IMG/VR virus record: IMGVR_UViG_3300022848_000005
Reading direction: 5' to 3' (one strand)
Origin: a virus
Lineage: Duplodnaviria > Caudoviricetes
DNA: 64,000 nt
The translations under genes were made by a program, and so were the position numbers. Below are positions 31,572-54,841 of this stretch, piece by piece. The stretch's first letter is position 1. Each line of letters opens with the position of its first letter. The notes under the pieces were generated by a model. It saw nothing but the letters and a program-made list of their open reading frames with translations, was not told the origin of the DNA and did no database searches.

Positions 31572-32089
31572 AAATAGCAATTACGGGTGGAACTAACGGT
31601 ATAGGTAAGGCATTACTAGAACATTACATTAAAAAAGGACACACTGTGATGGATTACAGTAAACGAAATGGTTGGGATATTATACACCATGAACGTATTG
31701 CTGAACGAGTAGCACAATGTGATTGGTTTTTTAATAATGCACAACAAGGTTATGCACAGACTGAGCTACTGTTTGGTGTATATGAGTACTGGAAGGATAA
31801 ACCAGGCAAAAAGATAATAAACATTAGCAGTATGATGGCTGGAATGACAGTTAGTTGCTTACCGGGTTACGACATGTTAAAGTATCATCATCAAAAGCGA
31901 ACGCTGGAAAGCGCAGTAGAAGTGTTACGAAATAAGATGACTTGGCCACAGCTAGTTACCGTACGACCTGGTAAAGTAGACACACAGGGAGAAGGCGGTG
32001 CTGATGTAACGGCCTGGGTAAGCAAATTGGTGCGTATACTTGAAGAAGACCAAGTTGGCATGGAAATATACGACATTAGTCTAGCATAA
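31568..32089 (+). CDS. Short-chain dehydrogenase/reductase
   Basis: IAITGGTNGIG, NNA, INISS and YHHQK (YxxxK). Confidence 0.88.
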   Translation: MKIAITGGTNGIGKALLEHYIKKGHTVMDYSKRNGWDIIHHERIAERVAQCDWFFNNAQQGYAQTELLFGVYEYWKDKPGKKIINISSMMAGMTVSCLPGYDMLKYHHQKRTLESAVEVLRNKMTWPQLVTVRPGKVDTQGEGGADVTAWVSKLVRILEEDQVGMEIYDISLA

Positions 32090-33244: not shown

Positions 33245-34342
33245 ATGGCACAAAAACCCTTTGATGTATCAAAATTTAGAAAAGGCTTAACCAAAAGTAT
33301 TGAAGGTATCAGTTTTGGATTTAATGATCCAACAGATTGGATCAGCACAGGCAACTATGCACTAAACTATCTTATCAGTGGCGACTTTAACAAAGGTGTG
33401 CCACTAGGTAAAGTTACAGTGTTTGCCGGGGAGTCTGGCGCAGGTAAAAGTTATATTTGCGCAGGTAATATTGTAAAAGAAGCACAAGCACAGGGTATCT
33501 TTGTTATCTTAATCGACACTGAAAACGCACTTGATGAGAATTGGTTAAAAGCACTTGACGTTGACACCAGCGCCGACAAACTGCTAAAACTTAACATGGC
33601 CATGGTTGATGATGTTGCTAAAACAGTAAGTGACTTTATGATAGAGTATAAAACACTACCGTCAGATGACAGGCCTAAAGTATTGTTTGTTATTGACAGT
33701 TTGGGTATGTTGTTAACACCTACAGATGTTGACCAGTTTAACAAAGGTGATATGAAGGGTGACATGGGTCGTAAGCCCAAGGCACTAACATCACTAGTAC
33801 GTAACTGTGTAAACATGTTTGGTAACGCTAACGTAGGGCTTGTAGCAACCAACCATACATATGCAAGTCAGGACATGTTTGACCCTGATGACAAAATATC
33901 AGGTGGACAAGGCTTTATCTATGCAAGCAGTATTGTTGTTGCAATGAAGAAGATGAAACTTAAAGAAGACGAAGACGGTAACAAGATATCAGAAGTAAAA
34001 GGTATTAGAGCAGGCTGTAAGATAATGAAGACTCGTTACGCAAAACCATTTGAAGGCATACAAGTTAAAATACCGTATGAAACCGGTATGAATCCATATA
34101 GTGGACTGGTGGACCTGTGTGAGAAAAAGAGTTTATTGGTGAGAGAAGGCAACAGCCTTAAATACACAACTTCAGCAGGTGATGAAATCAAACAGTTCCG
34201 CAAGGCTTGGGAACGCAATGAAGGCGGATGTTTAGATACAATCATGAATGATTGGGACACTAAGGCCCTGGCCCTCACGCACAAAACAACTGATAACGAT
34301 CCGGAAGTAGCAGATGCAAATTCTATTGCAGAAGAAGTATAG
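33245..34342 (+). CDS. uvsX: RecA/UvsX recombinase
   Basis: FAGESGAGKS Walker A, LIDTENA, VIDSLG, NHTY and SGG motifs. Confidence 0.95.
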   Translation: MAQKPFDVSKFRKGLTKSIEGISFGFNDPTDWISTGNYALNYLISGDFNKGVPLGKVTVFAGESGAGKSYICAGNIVKEAQAQGIFVILIDTENALDENWLKALDVDTSADKLLKLNMAMVDDVAKTVSDFMIEYKTLPSDDRPKVLFVIDSLGMLLTPTDVDQFNKGDMKGDMGRKPKALTSLVRNCVNMFGNANVGLVATNHTYASQDMFDPDDKISGGQGFIYASSIVVAMKKMKLKEDEDGNKISEVKGIRAGCKIMKTRYAKPFEGIQVKIPYETGMNPYSGLVDLCEKKSLLVREGNSLKYTTSAGDEIKQFRKAWERNEGGCLDTIMNDWDTKALALTHKTTDNDPEVADANSIAEEV

Positions 34343-35690
34343 TGAGCTACTAACCCAACCTGTTAATCAAATATACAGAGAACTTAAATCTGTTTACAAG
34401 CATGCGTTTGCAGACAACGAACGCATTCTTTTTATTGATGATGTAGAGGGTACAGATGCTAAGTCTAATTTAGAGTTTTATTTAGATAAACTTCTAGATC
34501 ACCTAGACATTGACAGGTTCTTTATACAAACGGTTAACAGAGGTAGCCAAACTATAGCTAACCCTACTAACTATCACATACCGGACTCAGTGTGCATAAC
34601 ACCCTGGTTAAGTCTGGAAGTGGATGTTGATAGTAAACTGCACCGTTGTTGCTTGTGGGACAGAGAAAAAGGCACTACTTCAGACAGTCTTGTGGAATAT
34701 TTTAAAAGCACAGAACAGGTCCAGTTGAAGCAGGACTTCTTACAGGGTAAACGCCCTGACGCATGCAATAAGTGTTGGCAACTAGAATCAGCAGGTGGTA
34801 CAAGTAAACGGTTAGCAGACAACTATGTGTTTAGGGATCACAAATTTGATATAGACTACAACGACACAACATCTAGTCGGATAGTTAACTTAGACATTAA
34901 GTTAGGTAACAAGTGTAATCTGGCATGCAGGATATGTGGCCCAAGATGCAGTAGTACTTGGTCACGGTTTGCTGATGCCGTTACTGTGGAGTTTAATTGG
35001 TTAGAAAACGAGTCCAGTGCGTTTTGGTCAGACATAATAGATATCAGTGAAGACGTTAAGTACATTACCTTTGCAGGTGGTGAACCGCTACTAGACAAGA
35101 CACATAGAAAACTGTTACAATACTTTATTGACACAGGGTTAAGCGAAGACATTGCACTTCATTACAACACTAACGGTACAGTATTTGCAGATTTTCTCTT
35201 TGATTATTGGGACCAGTTTAAGTCTGTTGAGTTAAGTTTTAGTATAGACGCAGTCGGTAAAAGATTTGAGTATGAACGTTTTGGTATGATCTGGGATAAG
35301 GTACATGCTAATTTACAGCGTTACAGTAAAACGGATTATACATGTAACCTTTACGCTACACTAACAGCTCTTAATGTTATGTACAGTGATGAGATATACG
35401 AATACTCTGAACAGTTAGGTTGTGGTATTACCTATAATTTATTAACAGATCCAGAGGATCTTGCAGTAACAAACTTGCCCGTTAAGACAAAGTTACATAT
35501 TAAAAATAAATTACTAGCGTTAGACATAAATGGATTTAAAGAAAAAATAATACCTGTAATTAGTATGATGGAAACAAAAAGTAGTATAAGTAGTTTACAA
35601 GAATTTTTGTTGCCTCAAGACTTTAAACGAGCTCAGCGTTTTGAGGACTATTACCCTGAGCTACACTCGGAGATAACTAAATGTCAATAG
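34314..35690 (+). CDS. Radical SAM protein with a twitch domain and an extra N-terminal domain
   Basis: CITPW...RCC...CNKCW; CNLACRIC, SSTW, GGEP and YNTNG. Confidence 0.92.
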   Translation: MQILLQKKYSELLTQPVNQIYRELKSVYKHAFADNERILFIDDVEGTDAKSNLEFYLDKLLDHLDIDRFFIQTVNRGSQTIANPTNYHIPDSVCITPWLSLEVDVDSKLHRCCLWDREKGTTSDSLVEYFKSTEQVQLKQDFLQGKRPDACNKCWQLESAGGTSKRLADNYVFRDHKFDIDYNDTTSSRIVNLDIKLGNKCNLACRICGPRCSSTWSRFADAVTVEFNWLENESSAFWSDIIDISEDVKYITFAGGEPLLDKTHRKLLQYFIDTGLSEDIALHYNTNGTVFADFLFDYWDQFKSVELSFSIDAVGKRFEYERFGMIWDKVHANLQRYSKTDYTCNLYATLTALNVMYSDEIYEYSEQLGCGITYNLLTDPEDLAVTNLPVKTKLHIKNKLLALDINGFKEKIIPVISMMETKSSISSLQEFLLPQDFKRAQRFEDYYPELHSEITKCQ

Positions 35691-35929: not shown

Positions 35930-36381
35930 TGTGGTATAATAAAGTAGTACAGGATCTTTCCTTTATTCCAGACTGTATCAACCACTACTACACTGAGCTG
36001 GAGGATGCCAAGAAAGAAGTTAGAATATGGGGCAATATTGAAAAGTCCTTGACCAACTTACCTGGTATTACTGAGCATAGATTTAATCAACTGCAGGAAA
36101 TAGAAGCAGTATTAAACTATCTAAACATACAACTTCGTAAGATTCGACGTAAATGGTTTAAGAAATATCTAGAAGGATATCAGCGAGCACTTAGTGCTAG
36201 AGATGCAGAAAAGTATGTTGATGGCGAAGACGAAGTCATTGACTTTGAAACCTTAATTAACGAAGTAGCATTGTTGCGCAACAAGTGGTTGGGTATTATG
36301 AAAGGTTTAGAAACCAAGCAATGGCAACTAGGTCATATAACTAGACTGAGAACAGCAGGAATGGAGGACGTATCATTATGA
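35929..36381 (+). CDS. uvsY: Recombination mediator UvsY-like
   Basis: KY...Y..ALS.RDAEKYVDGE...KGLE.KQWQL..I..LR.AG motif; near UvsX. Confidence 0.7.
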   Translation: MWYNKVVQDLSFIPDCINHYYTELEDAKKEVRIWGNIEKSLTNLPGITEHRFNQLQEIEAVLNYLNIQLRKIRRKWFKKYLEGYQRALSARDAEKYVDGEDEVIDFETLINEVALLRNKWLGIMKGLETKQWQLGHITRLRTAGMEDVSL

Positions 36382-37133
36382 ACCAGTTCACTCCAGAAGA
36401 GAGTCACCAACAAAGTTTATTCACGCTACACGAACTACAACAACACGACGATTTATTGGACAGTATTAAGAGTATTGCAGACGTTGGATGTGGCACTGGG
36501 TTAGATATCAAGTGGTGGGCAGAGAATCATAACCGTGAAGAGGACCAAACGCCACGAAATATCAAGTGTTATGCTGTAGATCTAGCACCCAAACTTAACT
36601 ACGATATTCCCAAGAACTTACATGTTATAGAAAACGATTTTACTAAGGAACCATTCTTGCCTGTAAAGGTGGATATGATATGGAGTCATAACAGTTTAGG
36701 ACATGCCATTAATCCATACGAAACACTAGCAGTCTGGAATAGACAAATGAATGCAGGCGGTATAATCTGTGTTATCCTACCGCAAATGCACAACGTCGAA
36801 TATAACAGAGTACACTGCCACCACTTTCCAGGATATTTTTACAATTTTAATATAATTAATTTAGTTTATATGCTGGCATGTGCTGGATTCGACTGTAAGG
36901 ATGGATTGTTCTATAAAGCAAAAAATGACCCCTGGTTACACGCTATTGCATACAAGTCTAAATACACGCCTATGGATCCACTTACTACCTCTTGGCATGA
37001 TTTAAGCGAACGGGAGTTACTGCCAGACAGTTTTAACGAGAGTTTACAGCGTACCAATACCATTACAAATCAGCCGCATCTAATACTACGATGGGCTAAT
37101 GGTTCAAAATTTGATTTAGCAAATACTGCCTAA
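36378..37133 (+). CDS. Class I SAM-dependent methyltransferase
   Basis: IADVGCGTG motif I; VDL; D.IWSH..L.H. Confidence 0.85.
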   Translation: MNQFTPEESHQQSLFTLHELQQHDDLLDSIKSIADVGCGTGLDIKWWAENHNREEDQTPRNIKCYAVDLAPKLNYDIPKNLHVIENDFTKEPFLPVKVDMIWSHNSLGHAINPYETLAVWNRQMNAGGIICVILPQMHNVEYNRVHCHHFPGYFYNFNIINLVYMLACAGFDCKDGLFYKAKNDPWLHAIAYKSKYTPMDPLTTSWHDLSERELLPDSFNESLQRTNTITNQPHLILRWANGSKFDLANTA

Positions 37134-37962
37134 TCCTACACCAAGGTTCTCCCTCGTGTATTTCATCAATAAACCATTCTGTGTTTAGTATTCTATTAAA
37201 CCAGTCTTGTCTGACAGAATCCAACGGCGTAACTAGACTATAGTCTGTACTGGCAACTGTACTGGCAAGGCTCTCAGGTTCTACCATAGCAGGAACCCCA
37301 TTGATAATTGCTTCCACTGCTGACCCACCGGTTGGACTAATAACACAGTAAGCATCATCTAATATATCTAAAAAATCAGTATCGTCCGATGTGCCTTTTT
37401 TATTTGCGACACCTACTTCATACTTGCTGTGTATGCTTCTGTGAATAGTATACCTTGGGTGTGGTCTGACAACAATTTGCTTGCCAGGACACGACAACTT
37501 TATTTTATCGACAATCTGTTCTAACCAGACCTCAGTAACAGGCATGTTTCTCCACAACTGGCTATATTGATTTTGACAGCACACAACAACTTTGTTTCCT
37601 TGACCTTGGAAATCTTTTAGAACTAGATTAAATCGTTCTGATCTGCCTGGAATAATGTCATGATCCAAGTGACCATAGTAGCCTGTATTATCGATGTGGT
37701 TAACACTGATTCGCCAGGATTGATTACGTCGAAGTACACCTACTTCTATGATAACAACTGGTTTGTTCTGTTTCCTATAATGGTCATATACTTTTTGATT
37801 TGCTCGCATACGTCCGTCCCAGAGCACACTCCATATTACGGCGGCATCAGCGTCCATGTCATCATGTGTTACTTGGTCCGTTTTTAATACGGTGTGCTCG
37901 AATGCCTTATAAATATCTTGACCAGCAAGCGCAACATTGTTGTGCCAAAAACTAATTTTCAT
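37096..37962 (-). CDS. KpsS/KpsC-like (capsule-biosynthesis GT-B) protein
   Basis: VVRPHPR...DDAYCVI...SAVEAIINGVP; TAAATA 6 nt upstream. Confidence 0.6.
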   Translation of the reverse strand: MKISFWHNNVALAGQDIYKAFEHTVLKTDQVTHDDMDADAAVIWSVLWDGRMRANQKVYDHYRKQNKPVVIIEVGVLRRNQSWRISVNHIDNTGYYGHLDHDIIPGRSERFNLVLKDFQGQGNKVVVCCQNQYSQLWRNMPVTEVWLEQIVDKIKLSCPGKQIVVRPHPRYTIHRSIHSKYEVGVANKKGTSDDTDFLDILDDAYCVISPTGGSAVEAIINGVPAMVEPESLASTVASTDYSLVTPLDSVRQDWFNRILNTEWFIDEIHEGEPWCRIRQYLLNQILNH

Positions 37963-37976
37963 AACACATATTTAAT

Positions 37977-39452
37977 ATGATACTAGGCGTAAGTTACGGT
38001 TTCCACGATGCAGGAGTAACACTAATCGACGGAAACGAAATTCTATTTGCAGGACATGCAGAGCGTTACAGCAAGAATAAGCACGACGCCAAGCTCAACA
38101 AAGCAATATTTCAGGAAGCCTTTCGGTATGGTGAACCTAATAGAATTATCTATTACGAAAACCCCTGGAATAAAAAACTACGACAAGCATTTGCAGGACA
38201 ATGGCAGGATGCTTTACAGTGGCCCAGTGTAAAGAAAGAACTACAACACCTAACAGGACTTAACAACTGCCCTATATACTATGCTGATCATCATGAAGCA
38301 CACGCCGCCGCAGGCTTCGCTACAAGCCCATTTGAGAGTGCCGCAGTTGTGGTAGTAGATGCTATTGGTGAGTGGGACACAATGAGTATATGGCAGGCTT
38401 ATATGGAAGGAGACTCAGTTCAATATGAAAAACTTTGGTCAAACACATATCCGCACAGTATTGGGCTTATGTACTCTGCATTTACACAACGTCTGGGCCT
38501 TAGACCTCTAGATGAGGAATATATCCTAATGGGTATGAGTGCGTATGGTGACGGATCGTTATTAAGTAGTACTATCAAGAGTGACCTAATAAGTGACCTT
38601 AGGCAGTTAAAATTTAGCAAAAACTTGCACTTGGGTATAGAAAAAGACTACTTAAAAGACTCTAAAGACGTCGATATTGCCGCAGGTGTACAAATAGTAA
38701 CGGAACAACTGTTAGATACTATATTTCATAAAGCATGGGATATAACTGGTGAACGCAATGTTGTGTTTATGGGCGGAGTGGCACTTAATTGTGTAGCCAA
38801 CCGAAACATTGGCAAATATTTTGAAAACATTTGGGTTATGCCTAATCCTGGAGATGCTGGTAGTAGTTTAGGAGCCGCCGCAGTATTAGATGGTGGTAAA
38901 TTAAACTGGAAGCATTCTTATTTAGGCACTGATATACCTGGTGAGTACCCTGTACGGCGTCTAGTAAACTATCTTAAAAAGAATAAGATTGCAGGCGTAG
39001 CAAGTGGTAGAGCAGAGTTTGGTCCTAGAGCATTAGGTCACCGCAGTTTATTAGCAGACCCACGTGGTGCAGAAATTAAAGATGCTGTAAACAAGATTAA
39101 AAAGCGACAACTATTCAGACCATTCGCTCCTGCCATACTTGCTGAACACGTTAACGACTATTTTAAAATGCCCATGTCATGGCATGATAGTCCCTACATG
39201 CAAGTAGTTGCTCGGTGTAAAAAGCCCACAGAGTTTCCTGCTATTGTGCATGTAGACGGAACTAGTCGTGTGCAAACAGTTAGCAAAGATGATAGTCCAG
39301 GATTTAGACAACTACTTGAGACATGGTATAAAGAAACAGGTTGCCCTATGTTGTTAAACACCAGTTTAAACATTAGGGGAGAGCCTATGGTAGATGATCG
39401 TAAAGATGCAGATAGGTTTGAGGAGAAGTACGGAGTTAAAGTCTTCTCATGA
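37977..39452 (+). CDS. Carbamoyltransferase (NodU/CmcH family)
   Basis: HDAG, ERYS..KHD, HH.AHAA, DAIGE, GGVALNC, GDAG, EFGPRALG.RS, RPFAP, H.DGTSR.QT and LLNTSLN..GEP. Confidence 0.95.
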   Translation: MILGVSYGFHDAGVTLIDGNEILFAGHAERYSKNKHDAKLNKAIFQEAFRYGEPNRIIYYENPWNKKLRQAFAGQWQDALQWPSVKKELQHLTGLNNCPIYYADHHEAHAAAGFATSPFESAAVVVVDAIGEWDTMSIWQAYMEGDSVQYEKLWSNTYPHSIGLMYSAFTQRLGLRPLDEEYILMGMSAYGDGSLLSSTIKSDLISDLRQLKFSKNLHLGIEKDYLKDSKDVDIAAGVQIVTEQLLDTIFHKAWDITGERNVVFMGGVALNCVANRNIGKYFENIWVMPNPGDAGSSLGAAAVLDGGKLNWKHSYLGTDIPGEYPVRRLVNYLKKNKIAGVASGRAEFGPRALGHRSLLADPRGAEIKDAVNKIKKRQLFRPFAPAILAEHVNDYFKMPMSWHDSPYMQVVARCKKPTEFPAIVHVDGTSRVQTVSKDDSPGFRQLLETWYKETGCPMLLNTSLNIRGEPMVDDRKDADRFEEKYGVKVFS

Positions 39453-40261
39453 ACTTGTATTGCCCAGGGCATAAGGTAGACAGCAAAGCCTACAGTGTAA
39501 TGAATCCACTACATGAATGTTACGGCTTTAGAAAAATTTTAGACCACACATGGGATCAAACAGGTCCCAGTTTCTTTTGGGGGTTTGTGGGCAAGAACTT
39601 TCAATTGGTTAAAGACCATCAGCAACTTGGTATAGACTGGTACTTTACAGACATGCCCTATTGGGGTAGATGGAACGGATTAAAAGAAGCACTTGACCCC
39701 TCACAGGATTTTTACTGGCGTGTTGTGCCCAACGCAACACATTGTAATTGGATAGGTGACTATCCCAATGATAGGTTTAAACGATTAGGAGTAACAGTAT
39801 ATGATTGGCAAACTAGTGGTGATCACATTTTGGTGTGTCCTAGCAGTTCTACTATGGAACGTTTTGTAGACCAAACAGGTTGGTTAGAACGCACAATACA
39901 AACTCTTCGTAAGTTTACAGATAGACCAATAAAAGTAAGACACAAGCCCAGAGGTAAAGGCACAAGCGGACCAGCCGCCGCTTTAATACCGTTTGCAGAA
40001 GAAGCACGTAATGCTCACGCTGTTGTAACAACTTTAAGTATGGCTGCCGTAGAAGCCGCCTGTTTAGGTATACCTGTATTCTGTCACGAACAAGGTCCTG
40101 CAAAACCAATAGCATTAACAGACTTAAGTAAAATAGAATCTCCCGTCAGACCTGATCGCACACCCTGGTTAAATACACTAAGCTATTTTCAATTTACAGA
40201 ACAAGAGTTACGTCAAGGCATAGACAAGATCAATGATAATATCGTTTTTACCAAAAAATAA
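39449..40261 (+). CDS. KpsS-like protein, paralogue 2
   Basis: ILVCPSS...VRHKPR...AHAVVT..SMAAVEAACLGIPVF. Confidence 0.55.
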   Translation: MNLYCPGHKVDSKAYSVMNPLHECYGFRKILDHTWDQTGPSFFWGFVGKNFQLVKDHQQLGIDWYFTDMPYWGRWNGLKEALDPSQDFYWRVVPNATHCNWIGDYPNDRFKRLGVTVYDWQTSGDHILVCPSSSTMERFVDQTGWLERTIQTLRKFTDRPIKVRHKPRGKGTSGPAAALIPFAEEARNAHAVVTTLSMAAVEAACLGIPVFCHEQGPAKPIALTDLSKIESPVRPDRTPWLNTLSYFQFTEQELRQGIDKINDNIVFTKK

Positions 40262-41090
40262 ACCTAGCAGCCTGGAGCTCATAGTACATGATTTTACCAA
40301 AGGGACACAGGGTAAAGTATTGCCTATATCTTGGTGGATTACAAACAAACGATTTCCTAGTGATACAACTAGAGTAGTCACAGCAGGTATACTAAGAGGT
40401 GGCGGAGACCTACTTAAAAAATTAAACACAACAAATATGCCGTACTATTATATAGATCATGCATATTTTAAGGCAGAGAGAGGTAGACCACCTGGGTGGA
40501 TGAAATGGATGCGAGTAACTGCAAATGGTTTTAACTGTACTAAGATAACAGATACAGATAGTACAAAATTTAATAAACTTTTTGATAGCACGTTTCAACT
40601 TAGTCCCTGGCGTAAAGATGGACAAACAATATTAATATTACCTCCGACTGATCCTGTAAAGTATGTGTTTGGATGCCATGGCTGGTTAGACAGTGTATTG
40701 ACAGCATTGCAAGGTAAAACATCTAGACAAATTGTAATAAGAACAAAGCCTGGCGAAGTATTGGTTGACGACACCGGAAAAGAAACAGGACGCACACCTT
40801 TCGATCCTGCACAACTTCCTTTAGATGCAGAACTAAGCAGAGCTCATTGTGTCATAGCCTATAATAGCTCAGTAACAATACAAGCCGCTATAAAGGGTAT
40901 ACCAGTAATATGTAGCGAACAGTGTTCAGCATACCCTATCAGTAATAACATGTCAGACATAGAGGATCTATTAGAATTTGATCGTTTGCCTTGGCTATAT
41001 AATCTATGCAACCACCAATTTGAAACACAAGAACTGCTAAGTGGTGACGCATATAGATACTTAGAAGCAGAAGAGGAACACAATGTATAA
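40233..41090 (+). CDS. KpsS-like protein, paralogue 3
   Basis: YIDHAYF...ILILPP...IRTKP...AHCVIAYNSS..IQAAIKGIPV. Confidence 0.55.
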   Translation: MIISFLPKNKPSSLELIVHDFTKGTQGKVLPISWWITNKRFPSDTTRVVTAGILRGGGDLLKKLNTTNMPYYYIDHAYFKAERGRPPGWMKWMRVTANGFNCTKITDTDSTKFNKLFDSTFQLSPWRKDGQTILILPPTDPVKYVFGCHGWLDSVLTALQGKTSRQIVIRTKPGEVLVDDTGKETGRTPFDPAQLPLDAELSRAHCVIAYNSSVTIQAAIKGIPVICSEQCSAYPISNNMSDIEDLLEFDRLPWLYNLCNHQFETQELLSGDAYRYLEAEEEHNV

Positions 41091-41128
41091 TTATAAAGAT
41101 AACGGATTAGTACTTAAACGGAGATAAT

Positions 41129-42286
41129 ATGAGATATCCATTAGCTTGTAGTACTTGGGATAATAAAGAACTAGAAGCAATTCAAGAAGTAATTAATACG
41201 GGTCGTTATACTATGGGTGCTCGTGTTAAACAATTTGAAAAAGAGTTTTGCGACTACTTTAAATGTGCCGACGCCGTGATGGTAAACAGCGGATCAACAG
41301 CAAATCTATTAATGTTGGCGTTATTGGCATTAAAGTACAATTTAAAAGGTGATATAATTGTGCCTGTGGTTAGTTGGTCAACAACATATTATCCATTACA
41401 ACAATATGGTTTCAAATTAAATTTTGTAGATATTGATAAAGATACGTTAAACATTGATCCTAGTAAAATAGAAAAAGCGATAACTAAAGATACTTGTGCT
41501 ATTTTTGCTGTTAATCTGTTAGGCAATTCTTGTGAGTATAAAAAACTTAATGAACTTGCAGAAAAACATAATTTATTATTGATAGAAGATAACTGTGAAA
41601 GTTTAGGTGCAATATCAGATACAGACGCTTACACCGGTACGATTGGTCTTATGGGCAGTTTTTCATTTTTCTTTAGTCATCATTTGCAAACTATGGAAGG
41701 TGGTATGATTGCTTGTCAAAGTAAAGATGACGCAGATTTCATTAGATCATTGAGAGCGCACGGCTGGTGTAGAGATTTACCAGACGATAGTAATATTTAC
41801 AAAAAAACAGGTGACAACTTTAAAGATAGTTTTACTTTTATTACACCAGGGTATAGTGTTAGACCATTAGAGATGAGTGGGGCAATAGGTAGTGTACAAC
41901 TTAAAAAATGGCCTGATATGAGAGAACAACGAGTTAAGAATGCAGATTACTTTAAAGAGAAGTTTAACGATTTTAAAGACGTTCAAATACAAAAAGAAGT
42001 AGGTAATTCTAGTTGGTTTGGATTCTCTATGGTGTTCAATGGAAATTTAACAGGTAAAAGAGATATCATTGTACAAAAATTCAAAGAAAACGAAATAGAG
42101 AGTAGACCAATTGTTGCAGGTAACTTTATGAAAAATCCTGTAATAGAATACCTTAACTATATAGATAATAAAGATTACACCGTTGCTGATTATATACACG
42201 ATAATGGATTGTTTATAGGTAATGATGTGAGAGATTTAACAGAAAATATTGATTTAGTTTACAATATAATAAAGGATATAAAATGA
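41129..42286 (+). CDS. colD: GDP-4-keto-6-deoxy-D-mannose 3-dehydratase (ColD-type, DegT fold)
   Basis: YPLA.STW N-terminus; FSHHLQTMEGG has His in place of the Schiff-base Lys, which is diagnostic of ColD; RAHGW.R.LP. Confidence 0.85.
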   Translation: MRYPLACSTWDNKELEAIQEVINTGRYTMGARVKQFEKEFCDYFKCADAVMVNSGSTANLLMLALLALKYNLKGDIIVPVVSWSTTYYPLQQYGFKLNFVDIDKDTLNIDPSKIEKAITKDTCAIFAVNLLGNSCEYKKLNELAEKHNLLLIEDNCESLGAISDTDAYTGTIGLMGSFSFFFSHHLQTMEGGMIACQSKDDADFIRSLRAHGWCRDLPDDSNIYKKTGDNFKDSFTFITPGYSVRPLEMSGAIGSVQLKKWPDMREQRVKNADYFKEKFNDFKDVQIQKEVGNSSWFGFSMVFNGNLTGKRDIIVQKFKENEIESRPIVAGNFMKNPVIEYLNYIDNKDYTVADYIHDNGLFIGNDVRDLTENIDLVYNIIKDIK

Positions 42287-43287
42287 AGACAGCATTGATA
42301 ACAGGTATAACAGGTCAAGACGGAAGTTATCTAGCAAAATCTTTATTGAATAAAGGTTATAAAGTATATGGTGGGCAGAGAAGAAGTACCACAAACAAAT
42401 ACTGGCGCTTAGATGAAATGGGTATTACAGATAATATTGAATTTGTAGAATTAGATTTAATAGATCAAGCAAACATTAGAAGAGCAATAGATGATACGAA
42501 ACCAGATGTAATTTACAATTTGGCGGCTCAATCATTTGTTGGATTATCTTTTGAACAACCTGAACTAGCTACCTTAGTTGATGGAGTGGGTGTACTGAGA
42601 ATGATAGAAAGTGTAAGACAAGTTAATCCTGATATTAAATTTTATCAAGCTTCTACTAGTGAGTTATATGGTAAAGTATTTGAAACGCCTCAAAAAGAAA
42701 CAACAAAGTTTTGGCCTAGATCACCTTATGGTGTAGCAAAGTTATTTGGTCACCACATAACAATTAACTATAGAGAAGCATATAACATATTTGCGTCAAC
42801 AGGTATTTTGTTTAACCACGAAAGTCCCATGAGGGGTGAAGATTTTGTTACAAGAAAAATATCTAAAGGTATTGCTCTATGGAAGAAAGAACAACGACCA
42901 ATTGTTTTAGGGAACATTTATGCTAAAAGAGATTGGGGCCACGCTGAAGATTTTGTTGAAGGTATGCAACTTATTATGAATCACACTAAAGCAGATGACT
43001 TTATTTTAGCAACAGGTGTGGTTAATACTGTAAAAGACTTTTTAGAAATGACACTAACGTATTTAAATATACAATATTACTGGAAAAATGATGAATGTTA
43101 TGAGAAAGATACAAATATACAAATATCTAAAACTGATAAAAAATATTTCAGACCTGCCGAAGTAGATATATTACAAGGTGATGCAACTAAAGCAAGAACT
43201 GAATTGGGTTGGACACATAAACACACAGCTCATAGTTTAATGATAGATATGGTTGATGCCGATATGAGAAGATATTGTGGAAAATAA
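42283..43287 (+). CDS. gmd: GDP-mannose 4,6-dehydratase
   Basis: TGITGQDGSYLA, YNLAAQSFV, YQASTSE, PRSPYGVAK, FNHESP.RG..FVTRKI, RDWGHA and RPAEVD. Confidence 0.97.
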   Translation: MKTALITGITGQDGSYLAKSLLNKGYKVYGGQRRSTTNKYWRLDEMGITDNIEFVELDLIDQANIRRAIDDTKPDVIYNLAAQSFVGLSFEQPELATLVDGVGVLRMIESVRQVNPDIKFYQASTSELYGKVFETPQKETTKFWPRSPYGVAKLFGHHITINYREAYNIFASTGILFNHESPMRGEDFVTRKISKGIALWKKEQRPIVLGNIYAKRDWGHAEDFVEGMQLIMNHTKADDFILATGVVNTVKDFLEMTLTYLNIQYYWKNDECYEKDTNIQISKTDKKYFRPAEVDILQGDATKARTELGWTHKHTAHSLMIDMVDADMRRYCGK

Positions 43288-44002
43288 AATATTTGTAACA
43301 ACTTTTAATAGAAGACTTTTTGATCAATATGCTCATCAACTGATTAGTAGCTATGTAGCAACTGAACAAAAGATACCTCTTTATGTTTTTGTTGAAGATG
43401 ATATTACCTATTATACTAATTTAGACAATGTACGTTATATTAAATTATTGGAAGAAGAACCTGATTTAAAAGATTTTACAGAAAGAAATAAAAGTAAAGA
43501 AGCTAATTCATTTACTTTTGATGCAGTAAGATTTTCATACAAAGTATATGCTCAAAACGCAGGAAGAAAATATGGAAATAAGATTTATTATGTGGATAGT
43601 GATTGTGTGTTCACAAAACAAATACCAGATGAATGGTTTGATGAGTGTTTGCCAGATGATAAATTTATTTCTTTTTACGATAGACCACATCAATATACTG
43701 AAACAGGATTTGTGGCATTCAATGAACGTAAAAAAGAAATCTCTAACGACTTCTTCAATCAATATACTAACTATTACAAAACAGATGAAGTGTATAAGTT
43801 AACAGCTTATACAGATTGTCATACACTAGACGCAACAAGAAATCATTTTAAAGATAATTTAAACTACTCAGAAAATATATTAGGCGATGGTAAAAACGGA
43901 CATATTATGGCTAGAGATAAGTTTCTTAATCCTTACATAGATCATAGAAAAGGTCCTAGAAAACAACAAGAGCATAGTCTAGAATGGATTCAGAATCAAT
44001 GA
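43277..44002 (+). CDS. Glycosyltransferase-like protein (DxD)
   Basis: DAVRFSYKV, YVDSD, ETGF, TDC and DHRKG.RK motifs. Confidence 0.65.
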   Translation: MENKIFVTTFNRRLFDQYAHQLISSYVATEQKIPLYVFVEDDITYYTNLDNVRYIKLLEEEPDLKDFTERNKSKEANSFTFDAVRFSYKVYAQNAGRKYGNKIYYVDSDCVFTKQIPDEWFDECLPDDKFISFYDRPHQYTETGFVAFNERKKEISNDFFNQYTNYYKTDEVYKLTAYTDCHTLDATRNHFKDNLNYSENILGDGKNGHIMARDKFLNPYIDHRKGPRKQQEHSLEWIQNQ

Positions 44003-44019
44003 AAGCAGGAAAAAGGTAA
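43999..44019 (+). pseudogene. Possible 5' stub (MKAGKR*) of a cupin gene at the right edge of the AT-rich cassette
   Basis: ATGA overlap; KAGK matches the start of the intact cupin at 45511 (MTTKAGKVWG). Confidence 0.35.
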
Positions 44020-44025
44020 AAAAGT

Positions 44026-44688
44026 ATGATTAATGTTTTTATAGGATACGACTCAAAGGAAAAGGCAGCGTTCAATGTCCTCAACTACAGTATACTTAAG
44101 AACAGTACCAAGCCTGTAAGTCTTACCCCGGTGTATCTGGAAAACATTAAAGATGACTTTGTAAGAGAACGCAATAACTTAAGCTCAACAGAATTCAGCG
44201 TAAGTAGATTTATTGTGCCACACTTAATGAACTACCAGGGCTGGGCACTGTTTATGGATTGCGACATGCTGATGACAGCAGACATTAATGAACTGTGGCG
44301 TCTGCGTGATGACCGTTATGCTGTACAAGTATGCAAACACGATTACGAGCCTAAACATAATAAAAAGTTTCTAGGACAAGTACAGACAACGTATGCAAAG
44401 AAAAACTGGTCAAGTTTTATGCTGTTAAACTGTAAGAAATGTCAAACTCTCACACCTGATTATGTTAATAAAGCAAGCGGGCTGGAACTTCACCAGTTTA
44501 AGTGGCTAGAGTCAGACGACTTAATAGGTGAGTTGCCTTTAGAATGGAACTGGTTATCGGACGAGTACGAACATAAAGATGCTGTTAAGTGTGTACACTA
44601 CACAGACGGCGGTCCCTGGTTTGAAGAATACAGACATTGTGATTATGGCGATGTTTGGTTTGACTACTACAGGGAAATTAGTCTATGA
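44026..44688 (+). CDS. GT8-like glycosyltransferase
   Basis: FIGYD..E, TEFS.SRF.VP, FMDCDML, KHDY, KNWSS, LPLEWN and HYT.GGPW. Confidence 0.8.
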   Translation: MINVFIGYDSKEKAAFNVLNYSILKNSTKPVSLTPVYLENIKDDFVRERNNLSSTEFSVSRFIVPHLMNYQGWALFMDCDMLMTADINELWRLRDDRYAVQVCKHDYEPKHNKKFLGQVQTTYAKKNWSSFMLLNCKKCQTLTPDYVNKASGLELHQFKWLESDDLIGELPLEWNWLSDEYEHKDAVKCVHYTDGGPWFEEYRHCDYGDVWFDYYREISL

Positions 44689-45530
44689 TTAGCACAGTTA
44701 CAGTAGTCTACGAACCTGAACTAGAATTACTGAAAACACAAGCACGGAGTTTTGACAACTATCTAGAAGACGTAGAAGATATTTTAGTAATAGAAAATGA
44801 CGATTGTCATTTAGGCATAGATCCGCAGTGGTGGGGTAGACACAGCGACCGAGTTAGAATTTTACGTAGAGAAGACATAGGCTACAAAGCACATGTTTCT
44901 ATTAACGGCAGAGAATCACAGCAGTTGTGTAAACTATTAGCACCAATGCAATCAACAGCAGAATGGTCAATATGGTTTGATGCTAAAACATTTTTAGTAA
45001 AACCCCTCAAGCCTAGCAGTTTATTCCGGGACAACAAATTTAGATCAAATCAAATGCCAGTGTTCGAACAGTTTAGTGAAGGTTTCGAAGTGTGTCAAAA
45101 ATTGTTAGGCTTTGCTCAAAAAGATCTGATATGGGTAGCACCAGGCGGCATGCCTTACCCAGTGAATAAAAAAGTTTTGCAAACACTAATAAGGTATGTT
45201 AAAATAACATCTAAAATGTCGTTTGTTGATTGGTTCGAAAAGTACAGTCAGTATCCGCACTTTGTGACAGAGATGATACTTTATAGTCAGTTTGTTAGAC
45301 CCGTGTTTACCTTGTATTACACTGACACTGAACCTACTTACAGGTGTGCAAATTTATCAGACTGGCAAATACCAGACATAGAGGACTTTTGGCAGAAACT
45401 TAACGATCCAAAAGTACTAACAGCAAGTATTAAAGCAGATGCTTATGATATTTTAGATATCGATCAACGTAAACAATGGCATACATATTTAGACTCAAAA
45501 GGATTACACTATGACCACAAAAGCTGGTAA
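44685..45530 (+). CDS. Putative glycosyltransferase-associated protein (GT-A-like)
   Basis: QQLCKL...WFDAKTFLVKP...TEMILYS; island context. Confidence 0.5.
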   Translation: MISTVTVVYEPELELLKTQARSFDNYLEDVEDILVIENDDCHLGIDPQWWGRHSDRVRILRREDIGYKAHVSINGRESQQLCKLLAPMQSTAEWSIWFDAKTFLVKPLKPSSLFRDNKFRSNQMPVFEQFSEGFEVCQKLLGFAQKDLIWVAPGGMPYPVNKKVLQTLIRYVKITSKMSFVDWFEKYSQYPHFVTEMILYSQFVRPVFTLYYTDTEPTYRCANLSDWQIPDIEDFWQKLNDPKVLTASIKADAYDILDIDQRKQWHTYLDSKGLHYDHKSW

Positions 45531-45864
45531 GGTTTGGGGAGTGTCAGAACTTATCCATGCAAATGGAGTTTTAGAATTCCATAGAATAGAAGCAAATGCA
45601 GGCAAGTTCTGTAGCAAACATCTACATAAAACAAAATGGAACGGCTTCTTTGTGGAAAGTGGCCGGTTATTAATTAGAGTATGGAAAAATAACTACGATT
45701 TAATAGACGAAACTGTGTTAGAAGTAGGAGACTTTACAGCAGTTAGTCCTGGAGAGTACCATCAATTTGAGGCATTAGAGGATACAGTAGCGTTTGAGTT
45801 ATATTGGGCTGAGTTCTCACATGGCGATATCGAAAGGGAAACTGTTGGCGGCTCAAAAGTTTAA
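45511..45864 (+). CDS. Cupin, mannose-6-phosphate/sugar isomerase-like
   Basis: KVWG.SE, CSKHLHKTKWNGF.VESG and PGEYHQF.A. Confidence 0.8.
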   Translation: MTTKAGKVWGVSELIHANGVLEFHRIEANAGKFCSKHLHKTKWNGFFVESGRLLIRVWKNNYDLIDETVLEVGDFTAVSPGEYHQFEALEDTVAFELYWAEFSHGDIERETVGGSKV

Positions 45865-46501
45865 CATAGTATGTGTTAGAGTAGGCGAAGCATATTCCTC
45901 AGAGTATGTGGATAGACTCTACGACATGATTAAGGCAAACTGCACCAAAGACTTTGACTTTTGGTGTATTACTGATTCGCCACACGATAACCCTAATATC
46001 AAGTTTTCAAAAATACAACCGTTAACCCCAAAGCCACGTTATATGTGGTGGTATAAGATGTATATGTTTAAATCGGATATCGGTTACACAGGTCCCACTT
46101 TTTACATAGACTTGGATGTTGTTATTGACAACTCTATAGACAAATTTTTAGAATCCTGGGACGACAGTTTTTGGATCTGTCAAGACTACAACAGGAGAGT
46201 AAAACCAGATTACCATGTTAGCAACAGTTCTGTAATGATGTTCGATCATGCCAAGTATACAAAGTACTGGGCTGAGTTTTATCAGAATCAAAAAGAAATA
46301 ATGCAGAAGTTTAGGGGAGATCAAGACTATCTCTCAGTTAAACTGAGAGAAGAAAATAAAAAGTGGTGGCCCTGGCACTGGACAATAAGCTATCGTTGGG
46401 AATACCTAGAAGGCAAAGCGCATCCTGACAATGCTATTGTGGTATTCCATGGCAATCCTAAGCCACACGAAGTTAACTGGGAGTTGGCAGATGTTAGCTA
46501 A
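45845..46501 (+). CDS. GT-A glycosyltransferase-like protein
   Basis: IVCV..G..Y..EYV..L, WW.K..MF, YIDLDVVI, NSSVM, GDQDY and FHG.PKP; probable TTG start after GAAAGGGA. Confidence 0.7.
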   Translation: MAAQKFNIVCVRVGEAYSSEYVDRLYDMIKANCTKDFDFWCITDSPHDNPNIKFSKIQPLTPKPRYMWWYKMYMFKSDIGYTGPTFYIDLDVVIDNSIDKFLESWDDSFWICQDYNRRVKPDYHVSNSSVMMFDHAKYTKYWAEFYQNQKEIMQKFRGDQDYLSVKLREENKKWWPWHWTISYRWEYLEGKAHPDNAIVVFHGNPKPHEVNWELADVS

Positions 46502-47339
46502 AGCAGACACCAAGTATGGTGAAATGCACTATTATAAAAATGATAAATTTATTGGTGCTAGTTTAGAGTTGTATGGTGAATACACAGGTTTAGAAATAGA
46601 TTACATTAAGCCTTACATACATGAAGACGATATTATCTTAGACGTCGGTGCAAACATAGGCACACATACAGTTGCGTATAGTAGTCTAGTGCCTGATGGT
46701 CAGGTAATAGCATTTGAACCTAATCAGAAAAATTACAACCTTTTAGTGCGCAACATTACGCACAACAACCTCACAAATGTACATGCTTTTCTAGGAGGTC
46801 TTTCTAATAGAGTAGGTCTAAGCACAGTTACCGACTTTGATCCCAACGAACCTGGAAATTACGGAACAATGACTGTGGGAAGTGGCACACAAGTTTGTTT
46901 TCTTAATAAATTAGATAATGTGTGCAACTTTAACAGACCCGTAAGGTTTATAAAAATAGATGTTGAAGGGGTAGAACCTAAGATTCTATTAGGAGGCAGG
47001 GATTTTATTGCACAGCACAAACCGGTAATACAATACGAGTGCATGACTAAAGAGGTTGCCCAGCCAATCGAACGTATATTTAAGAACTATTACCCTGGTT
47101 ACAACCTATACTGGATGCCAATCTTTAATTACAATGACACCAACCACAACAAAAATTCCAAGAACATATTTCTTAATAGTGGAGTTATGAATGTGTTAGC
47201 GGTACACACCCGTGACAAACAGCCTGACAACCTACAGCGTTACGACAGCTGGGAGGATAACATAGAAGTACGTAGTGAAGGCCTGCGCTTAAGTCAAAAC
47301 AAACTTATAATGAAAAAAACATATAACAAGTTTAAGTAG
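46491..47339 (+). CDS. FkbM-family methyltransferase
   Basis: LDVGANIGTH, AFEP..KN..LL and IKIDVEG.E..IL.G. Confidence 0.9.
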   Translation: MLAKADTKYGEMHYYKNDKFIGASLELYGEYTGLEIDYIKPYIHEDDIILDVGANIGTHTVAYSSLVPDGQVIAFEPNQKNYNLLVRNITHNNLTNVHAFLGGLSNRVGLSTVTDFDPNEPGNYGTMTVGSGTQVCFLNKLDNVCNFNRPVRFIKIDVEGVEPKILLGGRDFIAQHKPVIQYECMTKEVAQPIERIFKNYYPGYNLYWMPIFNYNDTNHNKNSKNIFLNSGVMNVLAVHTRDKQPDNLQRYDSWEDNIEVRSEGLRLSQNKLIMKKTYNKFK

Positions 47340-47342
47340 TAA

Positions 47343-48320
47343 CTAGCGTAAGTTACTGAGTTGTTGTTTAAACATTGTAATCAAGTAGTCTGAATACCCA
47401 TGTAAGAACCAATGGTAATTCCAAACACAAACCTCATGAGAGGTATAATACAATCCTTCAGCCTGACGTAAAGTCACAGGCAGATATGTCATAGCGGCTT
47501 GTCGCCGTCGAGAGTCAGGTAGCTCATCAAATAATAGTCCACCAAAACTGGTATAGGTTTTAAACCCTTGCGCTTCTAGATAACTCAATAGTTTCTGACT
47601 GCCTATCATAATAAAAGGTGTCATTGTAACAATAGCGTTATACGTTTTTTCAGTAATTATTCCTCGGTGTTCGTAATACTGGCTCTCACAGACAACGGCT
47701 ATCCAGGCATCCTGGTAGTTCTTGGCAATGCTTAACAAGTTTTCTGCATTATTGTAGTCGTAGTCTTGAAATGTTTTTCCAGGATACTTTAGTTCGATAC
47801 CACGTTGTTGTAGGCTAACATTCATCAGAGGGTTATTTTTAAGTTCATTAAATGTGTCTACCCTATGACGTTTAGCGATACGATTAGGAACCACAGCAAC
47901 AAAGTTGGGATTGTCTTTGGTAGCAACTTTTTGCATACGAGCCCAACAGTTTTTATAGTCCATAACAGTGTTATACTGCCAAGGACTAAACTCCACAACC
48001 TGTATACTGTCAGGGTGTGTGTCGTGCCATATACCAGCAACACCGTGATTCCACACCATAGCAACTACCTGTTTCATGTCGATTCCACGACCCTTGTAGT
48101 AATTGTGTATGGTGATTAATTCGTTAGGTATTACTGATCTGGACTTGAATGTTAGCATGTCCTGTAGTACAATAAACAGTCTAAAGTCAGGGTCAGCGAA
48201 GTCTATCTCTGGACGCTCTGGGAAGTCAACTGCCCAGCCGTCATCAGTAATGGGACCATATAGGGCACCACCGTGTACCCAGGTATGATCGACATAGGGT
48301 TTTATAATTTGATGTAACAC
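47343..48320 (-). CDS. Hypothetical glycosyltransferase-like protein
   Basis: ESQY...ITEKTY..I....PFI.IG....L.YL...GFKTY pattern; TAAATA 6 nt upstream. Confidence 0.5.
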   Translation of the reverse strand: MLHQIIKPYVDHTWVHGGALYGPITDDGWAVDFPERPEIDFADPDFRLFIVLQDMLTFKSRSVIPNELITIHNYYKGRGIDMKQVVAMVWNHGVAGIWHDTHPDSIQVVEFSPWQYNTVMDYKNCWARMQKVATKDNPNFVAVVPNRIAKRHRVDTFNELKNNPLMNVSLQQRGIELKYPGKTFQDYDYNNAENLLSIAKNYQDAWIAVVCESQYYEHRGIITEKTYNAIVTMTPFIMIGSQKLLSYLEAQGFKTYTSFGGLLFDELPDSRRRQAAMTYLPVTLRQAEGLYYTSHEVCVWNYHWFLHGYSDYLITMFKQQLSNLR

Positions 48321-48346: not shown

Positions 48347-49093
48347 ATGAGAGCATATCAATTTTTAACAGAAGGTCAAGGTGGATTAGCATACGAGGCG
48401 ACCGTATATGCCGCAATGCGAGCCGCTAAGATTAACGGTTTAGATTTAGGTGACAAGCCCACAGCAGGCTTTAGTAATCAAGGTTATGGTGATATCGAAG
48501 CAACATATAACGGTAAGCCTTTTAACATTGAAATCAAAGCCAGTGCATTCGATCAGATGGGAGGAACAAGTTTCCATTACAACATGGCTGGACAACAGTT
48601 AATTCCTGTAGGTCAGATAGAGCCTGATGAATTAGATATGTTGTTACAAGCCGCACAGACAAAAGCAGGCGATATAGATAACTTTCTTAAAGCCGCACAA
48701 GAATATGAAAATAATCCTAATATAACGGGGTTTCCTATTAGGGTCACTAAAGATACTAGAGAGAAACTAATAGCAGATGGCTTGCAAAAAGCAATAGCCA
48801 GTAATATTAGTGCTAAGTCTAGTTTTATTATAAAGCACTACAATAAAAAACAAGTGTATTATATACAAGTTGGTGGTTCTGGGCTATTTTACATGGGCAA
48901 GAATCCCCTTAAGTTGCCAGTACCAGAGCTACAAGGCGACATTAATATCGAATTAAGAGTAGGCTACGGTGGGTCAGGTGGTAAGCCCACAGTAACTGCT
49001 GGTATTAGACTGCAGGGTAGACTAAGAACTGAAAACGTTTCTAGTTTTACATTAGACGATCCAGGCAGTATCCAAGCATTATTCATGCAATAA
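48347..49093 (+). CDS. PD-(D/E)XK restriction-endonuclease-like late protein with a capsid-targeting-like leader
   Basis: MRAYQFLTE leader; G.AYE..V...GDIE.......IEIK catalytic pattern. Confidence 0.55.
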   Translation: MRAYQFLTEGQGGLAYEATVYAAMRAAKINGLDLGDKPTAGFSNQGYGDIEATYNGKPFNIEIKASAFDQMGGTSFHYNMAGQQLIPVGQIEPDELDMLLQAAQTKAGDIDNFLKAAQEYENNPNITGFPIRVTKDTREKLIADGLQKAIASNISAKSSFIIKHYNKKQVYYIQVGGSGLFYMGKNPLKLPVPELQGDINIELRVGYGGSGGKPTVTAGIRLQGRLRTENVSSFTLDDPGSIQALFMQ

Positions 49094-52185: not shown

Positions 52186-52514
52186 AGTATCTATGCATCG
52201 GTAATCCCACAAGTGCTACTGATGACATAACCACACGTCTGGCTGTTACTAAAAAAACCATTAACCACGGGCTTGCGATTAACATAGAGCAGGCGGGGTT
52301 TTATCACATAAGTTTAGCAGACATCAGTATATTGGAAGCAGAAACATTCGTCGAACAGTTTGATGAGTTATACTTCTTAGAACAAGCACGAGAAACATAC
52401 AGCAGTGAATCAGTATACAATAACACAAGAGCATTGCTGTTATATATAAAAAACTGGAATGTAAAACCTTTTAAGATTGTTAAAGAGTCCTGGATAAAAT
52501 GTCTGACGTATTAA
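52182..52514 (+). CDS. Hypothetical protein
   Basis: MKYLCIGN...GFYH.SL.D; coupled ORF. Confidence 0.55.
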   Translation: MKYLCIGNPTSATDDITTRLAVTKKTINHGLAINIEQAGFYHISLADISILEAETFVEQFDELYFLEQARETYSSESVYNNTRALLLYIKNWNVKPFKIVKESWIKCLTY

Positions 52515-54823: not shown

Positions 54824-54841
54824 GTTGTACTTATCGTTGTA

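Follow-up and report, generated by a model that had tools for sequence, protein, structure and literature searches.

Which molecule is made by a block of sugar-handling genes that lies among the replication genes of a jumbo phage, and to what is that molecule attached? We addressed this question for a stretch of 64,000 nucleotides, IMG/VR record IMGVR_UViG_3300022848_000005, which is referred to hereafter as the window. The 64-kb window belongs to an uncultured, T4-related jumbo myophage from a salt lake. Its tail sheath is 40-49% identical to the sheaths of PA5oct, Atu_ph07 and Phosso, and it also encodes the large terminase, gp32, UvsX, a UvsY-like mediator and a replicative helicase. DNA near-identical to the window was contained in 20 salt-lake metagenome runs (2017-2018). 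The island in question is approximately 12 kb long and encodes about 14 soluble enzymes for making, joining and decorating unusual sugars: three or four GT-A-like glycosyltransferases (GTs), one GT-B transferase, three paralogues with the KpsC/WbbB fold, two methyltransferases, one O-carbamoyltransferase, Gmd and ColD. It is a gapless run, save one 38-bp gap, and is placed in the replication and recombination block (gp32-uvsX-uvsY...helicase). The island gave no match to 50,697 phage records by megablast. We are confident that this 12-kb block is a glycan-assembly island. A preliminary description of the window had proposed that the island builds and decorates a glycan; this is well supported and can be sharpened to a conserved core combined with a swappable sugar cassette. 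As the target of the glycan, the phage particle is most likely, and the host surface or the DNA is less likely.

All proteins of the window were searched in a comparison set of 82 loci, made up of 80 related viral loci and two long metagenome contigs; at least 413 stretches in IMG/VR code for a relative. Five transferases, K1, K2, K3 and two of the GT-A type, form a vertically conserved core:

37096-37962, minus strand: K1, a paralogue with the KpsC/WbbB fold; matches K2 by blastp with an expect value (E) of 2e-8; present at 71 of the 82 loci
39449-40261, plus strand: K2, a paralogue with the KpsC/WbbB fold; predicted model with a predicted local distance difference test score (pLDDT) of 88.8; present at all 82 loci
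40233-41090, plus strand: K3, a paralogue with the KpsC/WbbB fold; 29% identical to K2 by blastp (E 3e-25); present at 79 loci
43277-44002, plus strand: GT-A nucleotide-diphospho-sugar transferase with a DSD motif (Atlas feature 0.99; GT8/Nucleotid_trans lead), 34% identical to Mosig_189; present at 43 loci
44026-44688, plus strand: GT8-like GT-A glycosyltransferase with a DCD motif (PF01501 at 23.6 bits, cut-off 24.3; phrog_28018 at 2e-40), 75% identical to a 'putative glycosyltransferase' of Pelagibacter phage Mosig; present at 60 loci

The core always adjoins gp32, uvsX (65 of 82 loci) and the uvsY-like gene (71 of 82). Among cultured phages with complete genomes, Pelagibacter phage Mosig and Caulobacter phage CcrSC possess it; Caulobacter phage CcrBL9 is another cultured carrier.

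Close relatives differ in the segment between K3 and the first GT-A gene. It is occupied here by the following element:

41100-43900: AT-rich, swapped-in cassette that holds ColD, Gmd and a diverged GT-A copy; GC content 0.28-0.34, compared with 0.37-0.41 in the flanks

In the closest relatives the flanks are 66-90% identical, yet this stretch carries other genes. In one relative the slot holds a sulfotransferase, a nucleotidyltransferase, a haloacid dehalogenase-type (HAD) phosphatase, a phosphorylase-family enzyme, a GT-B transferase and an asparagine-synthase-type amidotransferase; in another it holds a 2-oxoglutarate (2OG) oxygenase, a methyltransferase and a sulfotransferase. Genes for pyruvyl transferase, GT61 and ManC-like proteins are additionally found in more distant relatives. 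The cassette is not an assembly chimera, because its junctions are spanned in independent contigs of other salt-lake samples. Four salt-lake runs contained near-identical copies only, with no alternative cassette at 90% likeness or more.

The three K proteins, first described as KpsS-like, are true paralogues by blastp (E of 3e-25, 2e-8 and 4e-4), and their fold is closest to KpsC and WbbB. AlphaFold models were made for two island proteins, K2 and the GT-B transferase at 47343-48320. The K2 model gave VIA Z scores of 11.3 and 10.9 with KpsC (6mgb and 6mgd) and 10.0 with WbbB (5fa0), compared with 7.9 or less for other GT-B folds, and its best Foldseek matches were KpsC, KrkA and WbbB. The two-domain fold of KpsC/KpsS (GT107), WbbB (GT99) and KrkA is common to K2 almost throughout, with 232 of its 270 residues aligned. 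KpsS and the two modules of KpsC make up three modules, and the island likewise has three single-module paralogues. K1-K3 differ from KpsC/KpsS and WbbB in being shorter and in having no hydrophobic segment.

Transferases that attach 3-deoxy-D-manno-oct-2-ulosonic acid (Kdo) in the beta configuration depend on a Glu as base, a His as general acid and, within an invariant QxxxD motif, an Asp that forms a covalent adduct with Kdo (PMC10148158). Equivalence between motifs of the K proteins and KpsC was assigned from the order of the motifs and their position in the secondary structure. On this basis K1 retains the Glu, Gln and His-Pro elements of the beta-Kdo transferases in the same order: E73, Q130, S134 and H168-P169 were invariant in 56 of 56 orthologues, which gives QxxxS plus HP. 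Where QxxxD has its Asp nucleophile, K1 has an invariant Ser, and K2 and K3 lack the Asp. At the place of the KpsC QxxxD, K2 has CPSS, and it has Lys-Pro for His-Pro; K3 has a conserved motif set of its own (xKPx and LPPT); neither contains the Gln or the Asp. The change of His-Pro to Lys-Pro is seen in most K2 and K3 sequences. Matched by motif order, none of the three appears to carry the QxxxD of a retaining beta-Kdo transferase, and K1-K3 are not filed here as members of GT107 or GT99 because the fold is common but the defining catalytic feature is missing. Since each paralogue class keeps its own motif set, the three are functionally distinct and all maintained.

The K family lies outside any Pfam family. 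Capsule_synth (PF05159) matched 0 of 26 K-family members at E ≤ 1, and only weak matches to DUF6716 were found; PF05159 occurs in 17-18% of the proteins of two Atlas clusters nearby, and this is no more than a lead. The family comprises 4861 representatives at 50% identity (E ≤ 1e-3). Among 185,579 species genomes a narrow search pattern returned only five matches, all of them contigs of metagenome-assembled genomes (MAGs) that carry the island or parts of it. These five contigs come from GTDB MAGs labelled Legionellales, Pacearchaeota, Flavobacterium, Verrucomicrobia and Rickettsiales. They carry K paralogues, a GT8-like gene and others; two of the five have phage uvsX and a uvsY-like gene, and one of these two has gp32 as well. 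They are almost certainly phage contigs misbinned into cellular MAGs, and the K family appears to be virus-specific. Several K-fold paralogues are found in Tetraselmis virus 1, a giant virus of an alga. Other phages have proteins in which a K-fold domain is joined to a GT8 or GT4 domain, and these fusions support a role for the K fold as one step of a multi-step glycan assembly. No kdsA or kdsB gene was seen in the window.

The sugar that the cassette would supply is indicated by three genes of the variable set, two inside the cassette and one at the right end of the island:

41129-42286, plus strand: ColD, GDP-4-keto-6-deoxy-D-mannose 3-dehydratase (GDP, guanosine diphosphate); matches PDB 2gms and 3gr9; present at 10 of the 82 loci
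42283-43287, plus strand: Gmd, GDP-mannose 4,6-dehydratase (PF16363, TIGR01472); present at 21 loci
47343-48320, minus strand: GT-B glycosyltransferase with a GT10-type motif (CESQYY..GIITEKTFNA); predicted model with pLDDT 88.7; present at 5 loci

Gmd and ColD convert GDP-mannose to GDP-4-keto-3,6-dideoxy-D-mannose, the precursor of colitose-type sugars. Both had been named in the preliminary description, and both names stand. Gmd matches PF16363 over its full length (396.6 bits over residues 1-332 of 332) and TIGR01472 at 397.7 bits, just below the equivalog cut-off of 415. ColD matches PF01041 (242 bits) and, over residues 2-382, PDB entries 2gms, 3gr9 and 2r0t at E values of 1e-111 to 1e-113; the match to E. 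coli WbdK/ColD (2gms) had an E of 7.7e-113, compared with merely 1e-29 for perosamine synthase. Along with this whole-length match, the His that replaces the Schiff-base Lys is kept, as FSHHLQTMEGG of the phage protein aligns with YSHHIATMEGG, where the His188 mutant 3b8x reads SNH. An epimerase/reductase of the ColC type was not found in the window, in or near whose island Gmd is the sole full-length short-chain dehydrogenase/reductase (SDR). A 173-residue SDR-like open reading frame (ORF) at 31568-32089 (plus strand), which is 83-87% identical in close relatives, covers the N-terminal Rossmann part only and is too short for a ColC-type reductase.

The GT-B family at 47343-48320 has an invariant ESQY...GIITEKTFNA block in its alignment, which we take to resemble the nucleotide-sugar motif of GT10 (of the FxxxFENS...Y.TEK...NA type). 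There was no match to Pfam PF00852 and the Atlas lead stood at 0.80-0.81. The model tied between several folds, with Z scores of 10.9 for TarM, 10.4 for the T4 beta-glucosyltransferase (BGT), 10.3 for H. pylori FucT, 10.2 for FUT11 and 9.8 for FUT9; Foldseek returned generic GT-B matches only. A viral cluster of 705-residue proteins combines this shape with a GDP_Man_Dehyd domain in one chain, and this fusion to a GDP-mannose-dehydratase/epimerase domain links the enzyme to GDP-deoxyhexose donors. It is a candidate transferase for a GDP-deoxyhexose.

The remaining island genes belong to the variable set:

36378-37133, plus strand: MT1, class I methyltransferase dependent on S-adenosylmethionine (SAM) (Pfam Methyltransf_11/31/25); homologue at 24 of the 82 loci
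37977-39452, plus strand: O-carbamoyltransferase of the NodU/CmcH/TobZ family (Carbam_trans_N 141 bits, Carbam_trans_C 182 bits); present at 14 loci
44685-45530, plus strand: possible Stealth-CR2/DUF6492-like transferase, a weak assignment (PF11380 at E 6e-5, below the cut-off; DUF6492 at E 7e-4); present at 3 loci
45511-45864, plus strand: small cupin of 117 residues (Cupin_2, 27.5 bits; WbuC-like at E 1.4e-4, below the cut-off), 91% identical in close relatives; homologue at 7 loci
45794-46501, plus strand: GT-A-like glycosyltransferase with a DLD motif (phrog_1962 'glycosyltransferase', 3e-19), 30% identical to Mosig_183; translation probably starts at a codon downstream of the listed TTG; present at 19 loci
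46431-47339, plus strand: FkbM-family methyltransferase (TIGR01444 at 94.4 bits; PF05050); present at 20 loci

With these assignments, most of the gene content first proposed for the island was confirmed. At least four glycosyltransferase-like genes had been counted, and these are 43277-44002, 44026-44688, 45794-46501 and, on the minus strand, 47343-48320, with 44685-45530 as a weak fifth. The two methyltransferases are MT1 and the FkbM gene, and the carbamoyltransferase has both Pfam domains. What had been called a cupin isomerase is a real cupin and at most a putative isomerase, the WbuC-like match being that of the list. The nearest solved structures of the carbamoyltransferase are NovN (6e-51), GdmN and TobZ, and the protein is 46% identical to gp199 of Ralstonia phage RsoM2USA. 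The convergent MT1 and K1 genes overlap by 38 nt at their 3' ends (37096-37133). A 14-bp spacer separates the divergent K1 and carbamoyltransferase genes, which leaves room for their promoters only within coding sequence. Sequence and profile searches of the PDB gave chance-level matches or none for the K family, the GT10-motif family, ORF 43277-44002, ORF 4613-5335 with its family, and ORF 48347-49093.

Four genes of radical-SAM enzymes flank uvsX and the island (30624-31571, 32089-33243, 34314-35690 and 52499-53803), and three of the four are in the N-terminal twitch-domain family NF033640. Relatives have radical-SAM genes within the island itself, between K1 and K2. The gene at 52499-53803 is 43% identical to one near the carbamoyltransferase gene of RsoM2USA.

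The transcription setting had been used as an argument about the target, in that both minus-strand members were said to have late promoter motifs and modification of virion proteins, or of the host surface during assembly, was favoured on this ground. Neither point survived. The T4 late consensus, TATAAATA, occurs at two sites in 64 kb (37908 and 48334) compared with 6.5 expected, so that it is rarer than chance, and both sites are on the plus strand; a T4-type late-promoter reading of the island was rejected on these grounds. A second element, ATAAATACTA (core ATAAATA), precedes the tail sheath gene. Its three exact sites (13642, 16935 and 48335), all on the plus strand, stand before 13664, 16964 and 48347, and near-matches were found at 17638 and 28550. 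From its distance of 3-20 nt upstream of late structural gene starts, ATAAATACTA looks like the late promoter element of this phage. Because all TATAAATA sites and all exact ATAAATACTA sites are on the plus strand, the minus-strand island genes have no late motif, and the argument fails. The island lies inside the replication block and is free of the late-type motif of this phage. A sigma-70-like scan was uninformative (80 sites, 65 expected). ORF 48347-49093 (plus strand) abuts the right end of the island. Its only match was phrog_26930, of unknown function, and Pfam and the PDB gave none. It is probably a late gene, since ATAAATACTA, the motif of the tail sheath gene, stands in exact form 3 nt before its ATG.

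Our tentative answer to the question of the target is that the phage glycosylates its own virion proteins, such as tail fibres or other exposed structural proteins. A cytoplasmic, phage-encoded assembly line would build a complex decorated oligosaccharide. Gmd and ColD would turn host GDP-mannose into GDP-4-keto-3,6-dideoxy-D-mannose, the minus-strand GT-B with its fucosyltransferase-type motif would attach the dideoxyhexose, and carbamoyl and methyl groups would cap sugar hydroxyls. The K enzymes might add an acidic sugar activated by cytidine monophosphate (CMP), for example host CMP-Kdo, by a chemistry other than the Asp adduct of KpsC. The outcome would be a strain-specific surface glycan on each phage. 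A more specific version of this scheme is doubtful, though worth stating: in aquatic jumbo and T4-like phages the K-fold triple may lay an acidic sugar primer on fibre or capsid proteins by a chemistry that does not use an Asp adduct, and the swappable cassettes may extend and cap it (here with a carbamoylated, methylated 3,6-dideoxyhexose), yielding a strain-variable 'viral O-antigen'.

Several observations are consistent with modification of the virion. No membrane-span-like segment was found in the proteins between 32089 and 53803, where two marginal Kyte-Doolittle windows fall inside globular enzymes, and this implies that the island has no phosphoglycosyl transferase, flippase, polymerase or ABC transporter. 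The Pfam families of the initiating phosphoglycosyl transferase, flippase, polymerase and transporter gave no matches in the island. With no membrane parts or export genes, the acceptor of the glycan would be a cytoplasmic molecule or a host intermediate. The stable core, apparently specific to viruses, also counts for the virion, as do the sulfotransferase, the pyruvyl transferase and the asparagine-synthase-type amidotransferase of relatives, which are typical decorators of surface glycans. In CcrSC, an unrelated giant siphophage of Caulobacter, two K-like genes, a GT8-like gene and an FkbM gene come directly after the tail-fibre and tail genes and before the lysozyme gene. In the window, a 240-residue protein (4613-5335, plus strand; phrog_30607, with no match in Pfam) is encoded by the last gene of a tail-fibre-like operon (77-3667, 3702-4613) and is translationally coupled to the preceding gene. 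Its family takes the same place after Mtd_N/PTL_trimer fibre genes in three distant relatives, and a homologue (30-38%) is found among the island genes next to K1 in 22 related loci; this family links the fibre genes with the island and speaks for the virion as target. The invariant IGNGxSR and GFD motifs of the family are reminiscent of Maf, DUF115 or GT42 enzymes, but this likeness was supported by no tool and was dropped.

Other observations weigh against the virion. The island lies among early or middle replication and recombination genes and does not have the late-type motif of the tail sheath gene, and unlike the K, GT8 and FkbM genes of CcrSC it is not adjacent to structural genes. A search for mucin-like acceptors found none among the fibre-like proteins, which are only moderately Thr-rich (13-15%). 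K1-K3 seem to lack the defining Asp of beta-Kdo transferases. The colitose pathway appears incomplete within the window, which has no ColC, and the final sugar may be colitose or another 3,6-dideoxyhexose. Such clusters have also been read as modifying the O-antigen or capsule of the host, an opinion given without experiments (PMC7824862, PMC7029224).

Remodelling of the host envelope is rather unlikely in our estimate. The enzymes would act at the cytoplasmic face on host lipid-linked intermediates of lipopolysaccharide (LPS) or capsule and host exporters would display the altered glycan, which would block superinfection by competitors or re-adsorption of progeny. The closest folds do use lipid-linked acceptors (phosphatidylglycerol for KpsC, as for KpsS, and O-antigen linked to undecaprenyl diphosphate for WbbB), ColD and Gmd are classic O-antigen genes, the early or middle placement suits a surface change during infection, and cassette swapping at the strain level resembles O-antigen diversity. 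Published work has interpreted the GT8 and LPS-type genes of pelagimyophages and jumbo cyanophages in this way (PMC7824862, PMC7029224). However, the island encodes no initiating transferase, flippase, polymerase, transporter or membrane anchor, and a strictly lytic jumbo phage has little time to re-coat a cell. The same core is carried by phages of SAR11, of Caulobacter and of a salt-lake host, whose envelopes differ, and the core family seems to be confined to viruses and passed on vertically, not acquired from hosts in recent times. The sole clearly membrane-embedded protein near the island is a fatty-acid-desaturase-family protein (54104-54847, minus strand), which hints at remodelling of host lipids.

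Hypermodification of the DNA, which had been put forward as an alternative, is improbable. Here the transferases would glycosylate a hydroxylated or hydroxymethylated pyrimidine and the carbamoyl- and methyltransferases would cap the sugar or the base, which would shield the genome from nucleases of the host and of the phage itself. The part of the proposal that holds is that a carbamoyltransferase of the same family carbamoylates 5-hydroxymethylcytosine (5hmC) (PMC8670742). The island is moreover embedded among gp32, uvsX, uvsY and the helicase gene, the GT-B model ties with the T4 alpha- and beta-glucosyltransferases (Z 10.1-10.4), and phage DNA with mono- to trisaccharides from phage-made nucleoside diphosphate (NDP) sugars is established, with Kdo-like adducts on 5hmC also reported. 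The proposal is weakened by the lack of an enzyme that would activate the base. The preliminary description had seen no hydroxymethylase in the window, and tblastx searches gave no ThyA-type hydroxymethylase or hydroxylase in the 64 kb or in the 82 related loci. Searches of the complete genomes of Mosig and CcrSC gave no ThyA-type or TET/JBP gene either (no match to PF00303, and just 14.5 bits for PF12851). DNA-acting carbamoyltransferases were reported to lie within 3 kb of ThyA homologues, MazG or dCMP deaminase, and those that do not act on DNA beside glycosyltransferases (PMC8670742); the neighbours of the carbamoyltransferase here are Kps-fold and sugar genes, an arrangement of the second kind. 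Eight transferase-like genes, together with the sulfo-, pyruvyl- and amidotransferases of relatives, exceed any known DNA glycan, and a GDP-dideoxyhexose has no known precedent as a DNA sugar. An equally slim chance is given to a soluble glycoside, that is, a small glycosylated, carbamoylated and methylated secondary metabolite, comparable to an aminoglycoside or a sugar of the novobiocin type, directed against the host or competitors and made by the island with the twitch radical-SAM enzymes. NovN, GdmN and TobZ, the nearest relatives of the carbamoyltransferase, are natural-product enzymes, the twitch-domain genes lie around the island or, in relatives, within it, and RsoM2USA has its radical-SAM gene near the homologous carbamoyltransferase gene with no K or GT8 genes. 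In a survey of jumbo phages, the carbamoyltransferase clusters of cyanophages were suggested to make a secondary metabolite (PMC7824862). Against this, a set of eight transferases points to an oligosaccharide attached to a macromolecule, no enzyme that would form a scaffold (cyclitol synthase, polyketide synthase or nonribosomal peptide synthetase) was seen, and the carbamoyltransferase and radical-SAM genes are in the variable parts and not in the conserved core.

Phage particles are usually regarded as bare protein. If virion glycosylation is the true function, widespread aquatic giant phages coat themselves with a strain-variable glycan, and views of host recognition, competition between phages, grazing and the stability of particles in marine and salt-lake waters would have to be revised. 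The K proteins, with at least 4861 representatives at 50% identity, would then be a mechanistically new branch of the Kdo-transferase fold. Should the target be the host surface or the DNA, the core with its single swap slot would still be a compact natural system for the exchange of sugar cassettes. The question is directly testable because two cultured phages, Mosig and CcrSC, carry the core.

Besides the beta-Kdo transferases, the island can be compared with four known systems. As in the GDP-colitose O-antigen clusters of E. coli O55/O111 and Yersinia (Gmd, ColD, ColC), the gmd and colD genes are adjacent and overlapping. In contrast to those clusters, they form a compositionally foreign phage cassette that stands beside a GT-B with a GT10 motif, with no Wzx/Wzy and no ABC-transporter genes. 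With the sugar hypermodification of phage DNA (glucosylated hydroxymethylcytosine in T4, arabinosyl-5-hydroxycytosine in RB69/DLP3, TET-linked glycosyltransferases and the 5hmC carbamoyltransferase) the island shares phage-made nucleotide sugars, GT-B enzymes, a carbamoyltransferase of the same family and a place among genes of DNA metabolism. It differs in having no base-activating enzyme nearby or in complete relatives, in its far larger gene set and in the GDP-dideoxyhexose. Glycosylation of virions by virus enzymes is known for the capsid and tail of mycobacteriophages and for the capsid or fibril glycans of chloroviruses and mimivirus; chloroviruses encode a GMD. Those systems likewise use soluble transferases, virus-made nucleotide sugars and methylated sugars, and the island resembles them in its predicted enzymes but lies apart from structural genes. 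Glycan clusters of jumbo cyanophages and pelagimyophages have been described (Iyer et al. 2021, PMC7824862; Zaragoza-Solas et al. 2020, PMC7029224) and also combine sugar-nucleotide enzymes with paralogous glycosyltransferases, GT8 being the commonest, in a form that is polymorphic between relatives. The published clusters were described without a conserved Kps-fold triple, a fixed place after uvsX/uvsY or a single swap slot. Four features are new here: the Kps-fold triple with its non-canonical QxxxS/HP, the constant location after uvsX/uvsY, a single slot for swapped genes, and a cassette of ColD and Gmd that has a likely partner in the GT-B transferase.

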